DNA of 64,000 nt from Escherichia virus TH58: sequence record MT446423.1, one strand, 5' to 3'. The notes under the pieces were generated by a model. The model saw nothing but the letters and a program-made list of their open reading frames with translations. It did no database searches and was not told the DNA's origin. Positions within the stretch are counted from its first letter, which is position 1, and each line of letters begins with the position of its first letter. This document shows positions 35,927-48,581 of the stretch, piece by piece. The position numbers and the translations under genes were made by a program.

Positions 35927-36190
35927 ATGAAAACTTTCAACGAATTCATCTCAGAATCGTCTGGTGTGAAAATTAACAAAGCGGTTAATCAGGTTATTGC
36001 TGATATTCTTAATTTGTATAACATTGACTTAACTCCGCATATCACGCTTGGTAACAAACGAAACTTTTTTATATTTGACACATCCGAACTTGATGAAAAC
36101 CAGTTCAATAACATTCAACGTTTTGCGAATGATAAAGGTCTTCGACACGAGCCTGGCGGCTATAAAAAATACGCAATATATTTGAAATAA
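35927..36190 (+). CDS. internal protein (ipI-like) with capsid-targeting sequence
   Basis: N-terminus MKTFNEFISE matches the T4 internal-protein targeting motif MKTYQEFIAE; position of ipI. Confidence 0.55.
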   Translation: MKTFNEFISESSGVKINKAVNQVIADILNLYNIDLTPHITLGNKRNFFIFDTSELDENQFNNIQRFANDKGLRHEPGGYKKYAIYLK

Positions 36191-36192
36191 AG

Positions 36193-36223
36193 GTATACAA
36201 ACCTATAGGGATATGTTATAGTA
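36193..36223 (+). promoter_or_regulatory. early promoter cassette (GTATAC ... TGTTATAGTA)
   Basis: Family member; inverted repeat ATAGGG / CCTAT around the -10. Confidence 0.5.
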
Positions 36224-36259
36224 GTCCTATCAAAACAAATGAGTAAATGGAGAAATAAA

Positions 36260-36445
36260 ATGAAACGCGCTGAACTGATTCGTAATGTTGCTGTAGTAAT
36301 TGCTTCAGTAGCTTTTAGTTTTTCGATGTTTGTAGGATTCATTTGTGGACTACTGACAACAACAGAAAATTCTATCTCATTGGTAGTAGCATTTCTAATC
36401 GGCTTAATCGCTATCGTTATGGATAAAATTGCAAAAGGTGAGTAA
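36260..36445 (+). CDS. small membrane protein
   Basis: GGAG RBS then ATG 36260; about 61 aa with two hydrophobic segments. Confidence 0.4.
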   Translation: MKRAELIRNVAVVIASVAFSFSMFVGFICGLLTTTENSISLVVAFLIGLIAIVMDKIAKGE

Positions 36446-36446
36446 A

Positions 36447-36809
36447 ATGAAATATCATGTATATGCGGATTTTGAAGCAAATCCTTCTAAAGACCCTGAT
36501 TGTCGTTTGATACGCGAACCATTTGATTCAGCAGCTCAAGCATGGGCTTGGATTAAATCTAAATCGCCTGGTTATATGTTCTTTGAAGTAGTCGATGACA
36601 ATGGTACACTGCATCCAGAACCTACAGAAACTATTAATTTCCTTCTGTTTGCTGGTTACGACTGTTATCCTCTTGGTGGTATTGACGACCTTGTTGCTAC
36701 AGGAAAAACCGTTGAGGCTCTTCGCGAAATTTATAAAAACGCAGAAGAAAATTTTGACTGGTATCATATTGTTGATGCTCACACCTTTGAAGTGGTGGAA
36801 CACTCATGA
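36447..36809 (+). CDS. hypothetical protein
   Basis: 120-aa ORF, tightly packed with neighbours. Confidence 0.45.
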   Translation: MKYHVYADFEANPSKDPDCRLIREPFDSAAQAWAWIKSKSPGYMFFEVVDDNGTLHPEPTETINFLLFAGYDCYPLGGIDDLVATGKTVEALREIYKNAEENFDWYHIVDAHTFEVVEHS

Positions 36810-37096
36810 TTCTTTATGCTAAAGTAAAATCTGTTGAGAATGGATATGAAAGCGATCGACGTGCAGCTAAAGCACTAGTCGATGACTATGGTATTTTGAC
36901 CCACTTTGAGGTTGAAAAGGTTTACGTCGACCGTTCATCTTCACAGGTTAAATTACTTTGGGAAGACCGCAAATTTAATAGTGTGAACTTTGATTTCTTT
37001 ATTGAAACAGAAAAAGGCCCTCTTGAATATGATATTTTCAAGAATCCTTTGAAATTACGTTGCATTGAATATAATTACATTAATATGGTACGGTGA
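36806..37096 (+). CDS. hypothetical protein
   Basis: 96-aa ORF overlapping upstream stop. Confidence 0.45.
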   Translation: MILYAKVKSVENGYESDRRAAKALVDDYGILTHFEVEKVYVDRSSSQVKLLWEDRKFNSVNFDFFIETEKGPLEYDIFKNPLKLRCIEYNYINMVR

Positions 37097-37100
37097 GTAA

Positions 37101-37616
37101 ATGAATATTTGTTTAGGCAGTACAATTCCTAAAGGTTACGTAATTGATGTCACTACTTGGGAAAATGATGGCGACAATTATAAAACCAAAACATTATTTG
37201 GTGTAGAAGAGCATGAGCTCCAACAGTTTAAATATCTCTTGAAGAAATTTAAGAGTCGCCATTCTAGCACTAAAGCTGAACGTTACTGTGGTAATACACC
37301 ATTCAGTGATTGCTCGCTTTTAATCTATGAATACTTGGTTGAAGGACTGTTCTCAGACCAGCTTTATCCAGAATTCATTAAAAAGGTCTTTGATATTGAA
37401 GTCGACCTCGGTAATAAATCTGAAGAAGACGAATCACGTGTATTTGACCTGTTCCGTGAGAATGGATATTTGGTATCAGAAGGTCTCACTGATATTCTTG
37501 GCCATGCTTCTGAATATTATGATTATGATTTCTTGCGTGTAGTTGAACGTGTTGAATTCGCTTATATTGAAGAAGAAATTGTTTTGCCGACTGTTAAAAT
37601 GATTGATTTGCTTTAA
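37101..37616 (+). CDS. hypothetical protein
   Basis: 171-aa ORF. Confidence 0.45.
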   Translation: MNICLGSTIPKGYVIDVTTWENDGDNYKTKTLFGVEEHELQQFKYLLKKFKSRHSSTKAERYCGNTPFSDCSLLIYEYLVEGLFSDQLYPEFIKKVFDIEVDLGNKSEEDESRVFDLFRENGYLVSEGLTDILGHASEYYDYDFLRVVERVEFAYIEEEIVLPTVKMIDLL

Positions 37617-37695
37617 GAATTATGTGTTATTATTAATTCATACCCTCTATTACCAAAGGTGCTCTAAAGTGCCTTTCATAATAGAAAGTTATTTA

Positions 37696-37769
37696 GGCCC
37701 TGTAGCTCAATGGTTAGCAGCAGTCCCCTCATAAGGGAAAGGTTACCAGTTCGAATCTGGTCTGGGCCA
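37696..37769 (+). tRNA. tRNA with anticodon CAU (Met or Ile2)
   Basis: Acceptor GGCCCTG/CTGGGCC, T-arm ACCAG-TTCGAAT-CTGGT, anticodon loop CTCATAA; no encoded CCA; D-arm non-canonical. Confidence 0.6.
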
Positions 37770-37775
37770 TATATT

Positions 37776-37852
37776 CGAGGCATAGCTCAATTGTATAGAG
37801 CAACGGACTTCTAATCCGTAGGTTGAAGGTTAGAATCCTTCTGTCTCGACCA
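37776..37852 (+). tRNA. tRNA-Arg (anticodon UCU)
   Basis: Full cloverleaf folded by hand: acceptor CGAGGCA/TGTCTCG, D-stem GCTC/GAGC, anticodon stem ACGGA/TCCGT with loop CTTCTAA, T-arm GAAGG-TTAGAAT-CCTTC, encoded CCA. Confidence 0.85.
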
Positions 37853-37870
37853 ACTTCAAATGAGGAAAAT

Positions 37871-47113: not shown

Positions 47114-47114
47114 T

Positions 47115-47145
47115 GTTTACTTCCTCCAAGGACTTTGATACTATA
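47115..47145 (+). promoter_or_regulatory. early promoter cassette with inverted repeat masking the denV RBS
   Basis: GTTTAC 47115-47120, TGATACTATA 47136-47145; TCCTCCAAG (47122-47130) pairs with CTTGGAGGA (47159-47167). Confidence 0.5.
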
Positions 47146-47171
47146 CATTCATCAACTACTTGGAGGAAATT

Positions 47172-47585
47172 ATGACTCGTATCAATTTAACACTTGTTTC
47201 TGAACTGTCCGACCAACATCTTATGGCTGAGTATCGTGAATTACCACGCGTATTTGGTGCAGTCCGTAAACATGTTCAAAACGGTAAATGTGTAAAGGAT
47301 TTTAAAATCTCCCCGACATTTATCTTAGGCACAGGTCATGTAACATTCTTTTACGACAAACTCGAATTTTTACGTTTACGTCAAATCGAGCTAATCGCTG
47401 AATGCTTGAAACGTGGTTTCAAAATCAAGGACACGACTGTCCAAGATATTTCCGACATCCCTGCCGAATTTCGTAATAATTATGTCCCGACCGAAGCGTC
47501 CATTGCGATAAGTCAAGCTCGTTTAGATGAAAAAATTGCTCAACGTCCTACTTGGTACAAATACTATGGTAAATCAATTTACTAA
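47172..47585 (+). CDS. denV: endonuclease V (pyrimidine-dimer DNA glycosylase)
   Basis: N-terminus [31 protein letters not shown] and C-terminus [14 protein letters not shown] as T4 DenV. Confidence 0.9.
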
Positions 47586-47616
47586 GGAAAAAGGTTGCGA
47601 TGGTAAAGCTTAAACA

Positions 47617-47646
47617 GTTTACGCTTAAGTATTAATATGGTATAAT
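47617..47646 (+). promoter_or_regulatory. early promoter (GTTTAC-N18-TATAAT)
   Basis: Upstream of internal-protein gene 47677. Confidence 0.5.
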
Positions 47647-47676
47647 TACTCTATCAAAACAAACAAGGAAACAAAA

Positions 47677-47979
47677 ATGAAAACATATCAAGAATTTATT
47701 ACTGAAGCGCGAGTGAGTGCAGGTAAATTAGAAGCCGCTATAAATAAAAAGGCCTATTCATTTCACGATTTGTCCGATAAAGACCGTAAGAAACTTGTAA
47801 GCCTTTATATTGACAAAGAGCGTATTCTCGCTCTTCCTGGCGCTAATGAAGGTAAACAGGCCAAGCCTTTGAATGCTGTCGAAAAGAAAATTGATAACTT
47901 TGCTTCTAAATTCGGTATGTCTATGGATGACCTTCAGCAAGCGGCTATCGAAGCAGCTAAAGTAATTAAAGGTAAATAA
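47677..47979 (+). CDS. internal protein with capsid-targeting sequence
   Basis: N-terminus MKTYQEFITEARV; 100 aa. Confidence 0.55.
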   Translation: MKTYQEFITEARVSAGKLEAAINKKAYSFHDLSDKDRKKLVSLYIDKERILALPGANEGKQAKPLNAVEKKIDNFASKFGMSMDDLQQAAIEAAKVIKGK

Positions 47980-47981
47980 CA

Positions 47982-48010
47982 GTTTACTTTCTCCTAGAAT
48001 TGTGATAGTA
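47982..48010 (+). promoter_or_regulatory. early promoter cassette (GTTTAC ... TGTGATAGTA)
   Basis: Family member upstream of the denV-remnant ORF. Confidence 0.45.
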
Positions 48011-48058
48011 TATTCATAATTACTTGGATGGGTAAAATGACTCAATGAAAAAATTTTA

Positions 48059-48241
48059 ATGAAGCCACACTGGTATAAGTATTACGGCAAAAATATTTAC
48101 ATTCAAATAACATGGGAACAACCTGGACCTCATGATTCTATGAGGGATTCCCGCCAACCTGTAATAAGGTCGAGCCCAAGTGCGGTAATGGGTAAATACA
48201 GAAATGGACAATTCATGTGCCATGGAATGGCCCAAACCTAG
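48059..48241 (+). pseudogene. ghost of a denV 3' end (PHWYKYYGKNIY) fused to a short ORF
   Basis: Codons 3-14 (48065-48100) duplicate the denV C-terminus with many synonymous changes. Confidence 0.4.
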
Positions 48242-48245
48242 AGAG
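48154..48245 (+). repeat. direct repeat copy A (about 92 bp) upstream of the internal-protein gene
   Basis: CCAACCTGTAATAAGGTCGAGC...GCGGTAATGGG...ATGTGCCATGGAATGGCCCAAACCT repeated at 48651-48745. Confidence 0.6.
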
Positions 48246-48251
48246 AACAAA

Positions 48252-48581
48252 ATGAAAACATATCAAGAGTTTATCACTGAAGTTACATTATCTGCGGAAC
48301 AGAAAGCTGCTATCGAAGAAGCTAAAAATCCCAAAGTAACATATAAAGTAAATAGTAAAGGCGTTTTTGATGACTTGGTTCAAGACCCTGAATTGAAAAA
48401 AGCTCTTTCTAAAACTAATGCGTACTTTGCTCCTAAATTTAACACAGCCGGCGTACTTATTGGATTGGATGTATTCAACTCTAAAGGTGTTCTATCTAGT
48501 GCCTTTGGTTATGCCGCTAACAAAATTACCAAAGCCGCATGGGAATCCAATACCAAACAAGCTCAAAAGCCTAGAGTATAA
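48252..48581 (+). CDS. internal protein with capsid-targeting sequence
   Basis: N-terminus MKTYQEFITEVTL; 109 aa; flanked by direct repeats. Confidence 0.55.
   Translation: MKTYQEFITEVTLSAEQKAAIEEAKNPKVTYKVNSKGVFDDLVQDPELKKALSKTNAYFAPKFNTAGVLIGLDVFNSKGVLSSAFGYAANKITKAAWESNTKQAQKPRV

Follow-up and report, generated by a model that had tools for sequence, protein, structure and literature searches.

What are the small proteins for that a T4-like phage would carry in its head together with the DNA, and which of its genes encode them? The question is raised by a stretch of 64,000 nucleotides (nt) from Escherichia virus TH58 (sequence record MT446423.1; the whole stretch is termed the window), in which five plus-strand open reading frames (ORFs), at 35927, 38597, 46832, 47677 and 48252, begin with a ten-residue peptide of the kind that marks the internal proteins of phage T4. 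We consider it likely that all five genes encode T4-type internal proteins, which would be packaged, cleaved and injected and would probably act against Type IV restriction. Three of the five products belong to PHROG families whose names read internal head or virion protein. In the examined records and clusters, only those of 38597 and 48252 go unrecognised, and two widespread unannotated families are thereby newly recognised as, probably, internal proteins. The five genes, referred to below by their start positions, are:

35927-36190, plus strand: Ip9-family internal protein, 87 amino acids, tag MKTFNEFISE (phrog_7673, internal head protein, E 7e-49)
38597-39061, plus strand: candidate new internal protein, 154 amino acids, tag MKSYAEFLTE (phrog_2280, unknown function, E 5e-53)
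46832-47113, plus strand: internal protein, 93 amino acids (phrog_3499, internal head protein, E 1e-46)
47677-47979, plus strand: IPII (Ip2) orthologue, 100 amino acids, tag MKTYQEFITE (phrog_7857, E 1e-54)
48252-48581, plus strand: candidate new internal protein, 109 amino acids, tag MKTYQEFITE (phrog_3966, unknown function, E 5e-31)

An earlier note on this DNA had placed the starts of the five ORFs and read their N-termini, and both are exact. In all six frames of the window, the strict motif MK[ST][FY]xEF[IL][ST]E has exactly five matches, and the looser motif MK.[FYW].[ED][FYL][ILVM].E retrieves the same five only. Chance would yield 2.7e-6 matches to the tag (analytic expectation from the amino-acid frequencies of the window), 200 shuffles produced none, and no further ORF of at least 40 amino acids in the window agrees at six or more of the seven key tag positions. 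Among the five genes the tag DNA is 71-94% identical, with synonymous changes such as TTC/TTT, GAA/GAG and ATC/ATT/TTA/TTG. Since the copies differ by synonymous codons, it is the peptide that is conserved, rather than DNA that was recently copied.

The conserved positions are those that matter in T4. The first ten residues of IPIII are enough for incorporation into the head, and amber-suppressor mutagenesis of IPIII assigned positions 4 and 7 to targeting and positions 8 and 10 to processing (PMC9026906). Phe/Tyr4, Phe7, Ile/Leu8 and Glu10 are present in five of five tags, and the putative sites for the gp21 protease at positions 8-10 read, in gene order, ISE, LTE, LSE, ITE and ITE; the 46832 product has a second site, LNE, at residue 15. 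T4 IPII and IPIII both start with MKTYQEFIAE and T4 IPI with MKTFKEF...ITE, the MKTF start being common to IPI and the 35927 product. The earlier note had likened the tags to the T4 targeting sequence, and the likeness holds for the targeting as well as the processing residues of all five; cleavage itself is predicted from these residues and from the presence of the gp21 and gp22 genes in the window, which lie among other head genes:

2084-3367, minus strand: gp24
3796-5364, minus strand: gp23
5382-6194, minus strand: gp22 scaffolding core protein (Pfam T4_CASP, E 1.5e-89)
6228-6869, minus strand: gp21 prohead serine protease, the expected remover of the tag (Pfam Peptidase_S77, E 2.9e-107)

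The genes for gp68, gp67 and the gp20 portal are likewise on the minus strand of the window. Sites of the shape L/I-x-E occur in the head proteins gp23 (SFLTE-AEIGG), gp24 (MSKIQKLLRE-S) and gp21 (LIE-T), and we take these to correspond to the known T4 cleavage sites. The site of gp21 is given as LIE-9 (PMC9026906), the protease cleaves after glutamate, as exemplified by ITE-6 and LTE-619 of Alt (PMC5694885), and the gp22 core is the destination to which the tag directs internal proteins (PMC5694885, PMC9026906). The window belongs to Mosigvirus, a genus of RB69-like T-even phages, with 95.5% identity over the region to Escherichia phage SF and to other members, and the gene order is T4-like: 3, 1, 57A, 57B, a variable stretch with two tRNAs, nudE, e, denV and the vs genes.

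Beyond the tag, 77-144 amino acids remain, corresponding to mature proteins of about 8.9-16 kDa. Four of the five have an isoelectric point (pI) of 9.0-9.7 after the tag (9.7 for 38597, 9.6 for 48252), resembling T4 IPII and IPIII. The post-tag parts had also been described as unrelated to each other, which BLASTP beyond residue 10 bears out, except for a marginal match (22 residues, E 7e-4) that 38597 and 47677 have immediately behind the tag. None of the five has a significant BLASTP match to the mature part of T4 IPI either (best: 10 residues, E 0.01); IPI carries a 19-residue propeptide ending in ITE, and its mature domain is unlike any of the five.

The 38597 gene stands at the end of the tRNA region, which is marked by homologues of rnaD and rnaC (neither reaches the Rfam gathering threshold), and has the following surroundings:

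37696-37852: tRNA-Met and tRNA-Arg
38212-38325, plus strand: rnaD homologue (BLASTN against T4 rnaD)
38333-38471, plus strand: rnaC homologue (BLASTN against T4 rnaC, 98.6% over 139 nt)
38523-38567, plus strand: terminator-like hairpin (GCCCCTTCC...GGTTGGGGC and a T-run), then a late-promoter-like box, AATAAATA, at 38560-38567
39068-39094, plus strand: the terminator-like hairpin again (89% identity between the copies), which gives the 38597 gene a direct repeat on either side
39128: GTTTAC early-promoter cassette 3' of the 38597 gene

Members of the 38597 family occur in 510-512 phage records (tblastn); among the matches listed, the stretch is a "hypothetical protein", has no annotated feature or lies in a record without annotation, and none is named an internal protein. 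The four NCBI and UniRef clusters examined bear only names of the type hypothetical or uncharacterized. An exhaustive HMMER search against 1.8 billion representatives returned eight relatives, all from T-even-like phages or fragments, and hence no link to a characterised family. Diverged homologues keep the tag in the form [FY]xEFLxE. As to the starts in the family, phages ECML-134 and Bas37 have MKSYTQFLNE, Klebsiella phage Mineola gp134 has MKFKEFLAE, the homologue P0013 has MLKFNEFLAE and that of Yersinia phage fHe-Yen9-01 (P0014) has MLEYSEFLKE. In ECML-134 and Bas37 a second tag-bearing "hypothetical" gene (187-188 amino acids, MKTYAEFLTE) lies beside the homologue. The AlphaFold2 model (predicted local distance difference test score, pLDDT, 76) suggests a three-helix N-domain, a linker rich in lysine, proline and alanine, and a long helical hairpin.

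Directly 5' of the 38597 homologue, and behind the terminator hairpin, ECML-134 and Mineola have the canonical late promoter TATAAATA, at the spot where the window reads AATAAATA; late expression would be in keeping with a head component. The recent literature describes "two Ip loci" (PMC12373910), one after 57B and one around e/denV, and four of the five window genes fit these. The 38597 gene lies elsewhere, behind rnaC, and its homologues occupy the equivalent place in all contexts examined (SF, mogra, ECML-134, Mineola and Bas37). Its position just past rnaD and rnaC would make this an additional internal-protein locus, and the gene is present in more than 500 T-even genomes, Klebsiella and Yersinia phages among them.

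The 48252 family is smaller, with 90 phage records (tblastn). Nearly all of the rows listed are hypothetical, a few have no feature or annotation or show a neighbouring ADP-ribosylase, none is named an internal protein, and the cluster names in NCBI and UniRef are without exception hypothetical or uncharacterized. Gp053 of Dhakavirus AnYang is only 32% identical to the 48252 product and has exactly the same tag, MKTYQEFITE; its gene has denV on one side and a gene annotated as internal head protein on the other. Such retention of the tag where the rest has diverged is the strongest argument that the 38597 and 48252 families are, as judged from their sequences, probably internal proteins. A low-confidence model of the 48252 product, compared with the PDB, matched neither IPI* nor any other entry significantly.

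Annotation has partly concealed the tag. The SF counterpart, gp078 (14502-14894 of the SF locus stretch), is called from an upstream ATG, 21 codons 5' of MKTYQEFITE, and this start masks the tag in the public record. Similarly, mogra_155 (13447-13701 of the mogra locus stretch) is called from MYQEFIAE, a start that leaves out the opening residues which a tag should have.

The remaining three genes were known in kind: 47677 is IPII, 35927 is Ip9, and for the 46832 family some records use the name internal head protein (many say hypothetical). The promoters 5' of the first two are:

47617-47646, plus strand: early sigma-70-type promoter GTTTAC-17-TATAAT with TG, 5' of ipII
35862-35891, plus strand: early promoter of the sigma-70 type, GTTTAC-17-TACTAT, in overlap with the inverted repeat GGATGAT...ATCATCC, a promoter early stem-loop (PeSL)-type cassette 5' of 35927

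Over the 90 residues after the tag, 47677 is 92.2% identical to T4 IPII (BLASTP, E 1e-59), and at the DNA level ipII is 92.8% identical to T4, compared with 77-84% for the neighbouring genes. Mature part and early-promoter type agree with T4 Ip2, while the tag differs in one residue (Thr9 here, Ala9 in T4), the gene lies after rather than before denV, and the phage belongs to a genus with arabinosylated, not glucosylated, hydroxymethylcytosine (hmC) (PMC6024577, PMC8594841). T4 Ip2 inhibits the ECOR21 GmrSD/BrxU enzyme (PMC12373910), and by analogy we predict that 47677 would inhibit an ECOR21-like GmrSD. A perfect late-promoter octamer, TATAAATA, is found inside ipII at 47739-47746, created by an isoleucine codon (ATA) where T4 IPII has valine; a late transcript that includes the 48252 gene could originate here. 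This copy (47739) is the sole one nearby, the canonical octamer being absent immediately 5' of each of the five genes.

The 35927 gene, for an Ip9 member of the polymorphic T-even internal proteins Ip4-Ip10, comes straight after gene 57B, at the classical ipI locus. Its product is 71% identical to Ip9 of phage RB15 and fully identical to SF gp050, which is named internal head protein; the promoter at 35862 is of the type found at T4 ipI. The locus differs from those of SF and mogra, where an Ip7-like gene stands beside the Ip9-like gene. This extra gene (103 amino acids, MKTYQEFIAE) lies between 57B and the Ip9-like gene; when 1549-1999 of the SF and 1549-2002 of the mogra locus stretch are compared with 35849-35926 of the window, it is missing from the window.

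Homologues of the Ip9 mature domain occur without a tag in other phages. Gp64 of the Kagunavirus siphophage JSSK01 has 72 amino acids, is 57% identical and starts with MNKATASVV, the siphovirus Seuratvirus ECP2304 has a free-standing homologue, and in Kuttervirus pertopsoe the domain is the C-terminal part of gp086, whose annotated coding sequence (CDS) has 2,268 bp. Their positions in the fetched loci are:

1507-1725: JSSK01 gp64
about 1490-1716: ECP2304 homologue
1-1734: pertopsoe gp086

These tag-less relatives suggest how such an effector may originate, namely from an ordinary accessory protein that gains a ten-residue tag.

The 46832 ATG overlaps the stop codon of the endolysin gene e (ATGA), which implies translational coupling to e. 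The product equals RB69ORF127c (100% identity over query residues 3-83) and is 48% identical over its full length to bas37_0261, which is encoded at the ipI locus of phage Bas37 rather than between e and denV as in the window. The tag of this family comprises ten residues in the window and is of the fifteen-residue IPI type (MKTFKEFATKTTITE) in Bas37. Judged by these sequences, one cargo family moves between loci, and the two tag types, along with the Ip9 domain that occurs elsewhere without a tag, indicate that tag and cargo are separable units.

That the local gene order departs from that of T4 had been pointed out in the earlier note, correctly: T4 has e-ipIII-ipII-denV, and the window has e-46832-denV-ipII-48252, an order common to SF (e-IP-denV-ipII-IP). 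Between ipII and the 48252 gene lie a dead copy of denV and the first of two copies of a conserved leader:

47982-48105, plus strand: Tequatrovirus-type denV remnant, in which the promoter and the first 7 nt run straight into the last 71 nt, about 339 nt being lost
48114-48245, plus strand: leader copy A, 96% identical to T4, here preceding the 48252 gene and normally the vs.8 homologue
48651-48763, plus strand: leader copy B, 80% identical to copy A, in the usual place 5' of the vs.8 homologue (ATG 48754)

The similarity of the remnant was measured against phage Bas37/KarlGJung. Positions 47982-48043 are 93.5% identical to the e-denV intergenic promoter and the first 7 nt of denV of Tequatrovirus Bas37, and positions 48036-48261 are 96.5% identical to its last 71 nt of denV, the 146-nt leader and the first 10 nt of vs.8. 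The remnant translates as KPHWYKYYGKNIY, compared with the denV C-terminus. The resident intact denV (47160-47585) is only 74-79% identical to Tequatrovirus denV, against 93% identity to T4 for ipII including its 3' flank. In the T4 order, ipII, dead denV and leader follow each other, with the resident denV and the 46832 gene upstream. Mosigvirus mogra has neither the dead denV nor the 48252 gene and instead possesses another tag-bearing gene and ipIII. The deleted Tequatrovirus-type denV between ipII and 48252 indicates that recombination probably contributed to the non-T4 order.

Repeated elements flank the genes. PeSL-type early promoters recur at 35862, 39128, 47115, 47617 and 47982 (PeSL consensus TTTACW-N17-TAYWAT; PMC4122927), twin terminator hairpins enclose 38597, and the duplicated leader encloses 48252. 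Such bracketing repeats fit the modular shuffling model of Arbiol and Comeau for T4-like genomes (PMC2839356, PMC4122927). Published PeSL cassettes are likewise early promoters with overlapping stem-loops that flank variable genes (PMC2839356, PMC4122927), to which the window adds the twin terminator hairpins and a duplicated leader of roughly 100 nt. Less than about 70 nt behind the 38597, 46832 and 47677 genes, similar early-promoter cassettes (TGTTTACTTCYTCYAAGGAC...TGATACTATA) occur, at 39128, 47115 and 47982, respectively.

From the observed tags, protease and scaffold genes, homologies, flanking repeats and scars we infer the following scheme of packaging, cleavage, injection and targets. 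The first ten residues would serve as a capsid targeting sequence (CTS) that carries the freshly synthesised protein into the scaffolding core of gp22 during prohead assembly. The gp21 protease would then cut after Glu10, and in the 46832 product perhaps also after Glu15, leaving mature, mostly basic proteins that would remain beside the DNA in the head and reach the cell together with it. Proteins that enter with the DNA can act before any phage gene expression. Their likeliest job would be the stoichiometric inhibition of host nucleases that attack glycosylated hmC DNA, the probable targets being GmrSD-family Type IV restriction enzymes and perhaps McrBC, with each mature domain specific for one variant. 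The genes themselves probably behave as cassettes between repeated early promoters, terminator hairpins or leaders, which are swapped between loci and genera by recombination.

An anti-defence role had been suggested earlier on the strength of IPI, and it is now better founded. Silas et al. (2025) report that T4 Ip1, Ip2 and Ip3 each inhibit one GmrSD-type enzyme, those of CT596, ECOR21 (BrxU) and the ECOR17 doublet, without cross-protection, and propose the ip loci as a hot spot of restriction inhibitors (PMC12373910). According to a 2025 preprint, the tag-bearing bas37_0260, encoded at the ipI locus of Bas37, inhibits McrBC (10.1101/2025.11.20.689424). An anti-restriction role is thus established for four members of the tag-bearing class. 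T4 IPI*, the CT596 GmrSD inhibitor, follows the same delivery logic as would the five window proteins, and bas37_0260, with the same tag and the same hot-spot biology, illustrates that tag-bearing proteins can hit Type IV systems besides GmrSD. RB69, a phage of the same genus as that of the window, has arabinosyl-hmC DNA and is restricted by GmrSD enzymes (PMC6024577). Extending the analogy beyond 47677, we predict that the other four proteins are specific inhibitors of other DNA-modification-dependent nucleases.

Several observations weigh against this picture. The five proteins have nothing above threshold in Pfam, NCBIfam or PDB sequences (weak MerR/GemA and DUF7412 matches lie below the cut-offs), and the predicted folds of their mature domains yield generic coiled-coil matches only, so that these domains are not tied directly to a nuclease; nor do sequence or predicted structure suggest any mechanism. 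The mature part of 46832, with a pI of 6.3 after the tag, is not basic. A tblastn search with bas37_0260 against the window retrieved the ten tag residues and no homologue of its mature part. When ip4-ip10 were assayed against five more GmrSD systems, no reproducible inhibition was seen (PMC12373910, Supplementary Fig. 9). Searches of the literature brought up no virion proteomics data on this phage or on any member of phrog_2280 or phrog_3966, and nothing usable on virion mass spectrometry of Mosigvirus phages or of fHe-Yen9-01, which carries a 38597 homologue. The passages on HIDEN-SEQ hits in Bas37 name other genes, with no mention there of bas37_0244, the 38597 homologue. The box AATAAATA upstream of 38597 deviates by one base from the late-promoter consensus, and an in-frame ATG at 48204, 48 nt 5' of 48252, is used by some annotators.

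This last point leads to an alternative start for one gene. If 48252 were translated from the ATG at 48204, as annotated for SF gp078, its tag would be internal and non-functional. The frame is open from 48204, and both SF gp078 and the cluster representative P0011 are annotated with N-terminal extensions. The extension, however, falls into the conserved non-coding leader that is also present 5' of the vs.8 homologue, no ribosome-binding site is recognisable 5' of 48204, most database entries use the 109-amino-acid form, and the AnYang homologue begins at MKTY, right after a Shine-Dalgarno-like AAGGA. We regard the upstream start as very improbable. Somewhat less remote, and still quite improbable, is the view that the 38597 and 48252 products are ordinary early or late cytoplasmic proteins, whose likeness to tagged proteins arose when recurrent recombination between cassettes copied the 5' ends of neighbouring genes. 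Recombination junctions do occur at gene starts here, as the leader repeat extends 10 nt into 48252 (ATGAAAACAT) and into the vs.8 homologue (ATGAGAACAT), and no database calls either protein structural. Yet the tag residues are kept in homologues of 32-61% identity from Dhakavirus, Jiaodavirus and Yersinia phages, the synonymous codon differences among the five copies speak for selection on the peptide rather than recent copying, and in relatives a late promoter stands directly upstream.

The most serious contender accepts packaging and disputes the purpose: the proteins might be packaged mainly as counter-ions of the DNA or as packaging aids, and not as anti-defence effectors. Four of the five mature parts are basic, the linker of 38597 recalls histone tails, lysines of internal proteins touch DNA phosphates in T4 heads according to solid-state nuclear magnetic resonance (PMC3012670), and the lack of reproducible anti-GmrSD activity of ip4-ip10 (PMC12373910) would be in keeping with such a role. 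Bulk charge nevertheless leaves unexplained why unrelated folds are swapped between close relatives and why each T4 internal protein assayed to date has a specific nuclease as its target (PMC12373910); 46832 is an exception to the charge rule, and phages without this packaging system possess the Ip9 domain as a free-standing protein. We therefore judge this explanation unlikely as the main one, and a role as DNA counter-ion to be a reasonable second function for the basic internal proteins. Injected anti-restriction proteins remain our preferred reading. A bolder composite of two proposals, namely that 38597 marks an unannotated third locus and encodes an injected effector directed at some host system besides the GmrSD and McrBC enzymes matched so far, and separately that the leader is an undescribed structured RNA common to T-even and rV5-like phages, is put forward tentatively, as a possibility with the odds against it.

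The class of tag-bearing genes has reportedly been known since the work of Repoila et al. in 1994 and of Mullaney and Black in 1996, and the concept of internal proteins, which dates from 1994-2008, is unchanged by the present findings. New, besides the two families, are the probable additional locus behind rnaC, the tag-less Ip9 relatives in unrelated phages and the recombination scars beside the local gene order. Ip4-Ip10 were described by Repoila et al. 1994 (as cited in PMC12373910, PMC9026906). Since 2025, each T4 internal protein with a known target is a specific inhibitor of Type IV restriction, and because internal proteins act before any phage gene is transcribed, they constitute the phage's first countermeasure. 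With the families phrog_2280 and phrog_3966 (at least 510 and 90 phage records, respectively) counted as probable internal proteins, there are more candidate inhibitors for the many GmrSD classes without a matched inhibitor, and the 38597 locus would amend the current notion of "two Ip loci".

The leader that is duplicated around 48252 is an observation in its own right. This element of roughly 100-130 nt is found in more than 1000 phage records and lies just 5' of the gene at the vs.8 position in six of the six genera fetched. Its 40-nt core (AACCTGTAATAAGGTCGAGC..GCGGTAATGG) is nearly invariant, even in apparently rV5-like contigs of about 140 kb, where it lies near tRNA genes. The hairpins flanking the core vary in sequence and still pair (GGGAA/TTCCC versus GGGAG/CTCCC versus GGAAC/GTTCC; CCTCAT/ATGAGG versus CTACG/CGTAG; GCCA/TGGC versus GCTGG/CCAGC), and RNAalifold finds three pairs with compensatory changes. 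Single-sequence folding energies are no better than those of shuffles, and a search of Rfam returned no family at threshold or even at E <= 5. The leader is possibly an undescribed structured RNA, as predicted from these pairing patterns.

Two other explanations of the leader were rejected. Mimicry of the host is contradicted by the lack of any match in 5,426 E. coli genomes. A coding function as the N-terminus of vs.8, as annotated in T4, disagrees with the insertions and deletions in copy B, which break the frame, and with KP01, phiR1-RT, CF1 and Roth20, where the stretch is annotated as intergenic; CDSs of Cronus and IME523 extend into it. T4 vs.8 is annotated with 219 amino acids, including a 40-residue N-terminal extension within the leader (2808-2913 of the T4 locus stretch). 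In the window (region 48718-49293), mogra and Bas37 the vs.8 homologue starts with MRTFLTGPYL (179 amino acids), and upstream of it in copy B the frame is broken. On comparison of these sequences, the T4 vs.8 start is probably over-extended.

Elsewhere in the window, three tandem small ORFs look paralogous, at 42005-42310, 42283-42594 and 42604-42801 (101, 103 and 65 amino acids), with similar C-terminal motifs (GAWVSSSALC, GGWIASSHTC and QGWVSSSYSC, respectively). Another motif is common near the C-terminus of several hydrophobic-looking small ORFs and one soluble-looking ORF (FIKECRK, FIKECRGK, FITECRNLR and FIMECREY). Its DNA forms a repeat family (D14) at 41245-41274, 41985-42008, 44440-44464 and 45600-45631. 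The FIKECRK-type motif falls at the start of the next gene and may represent a recombination linker or a coupling signal.

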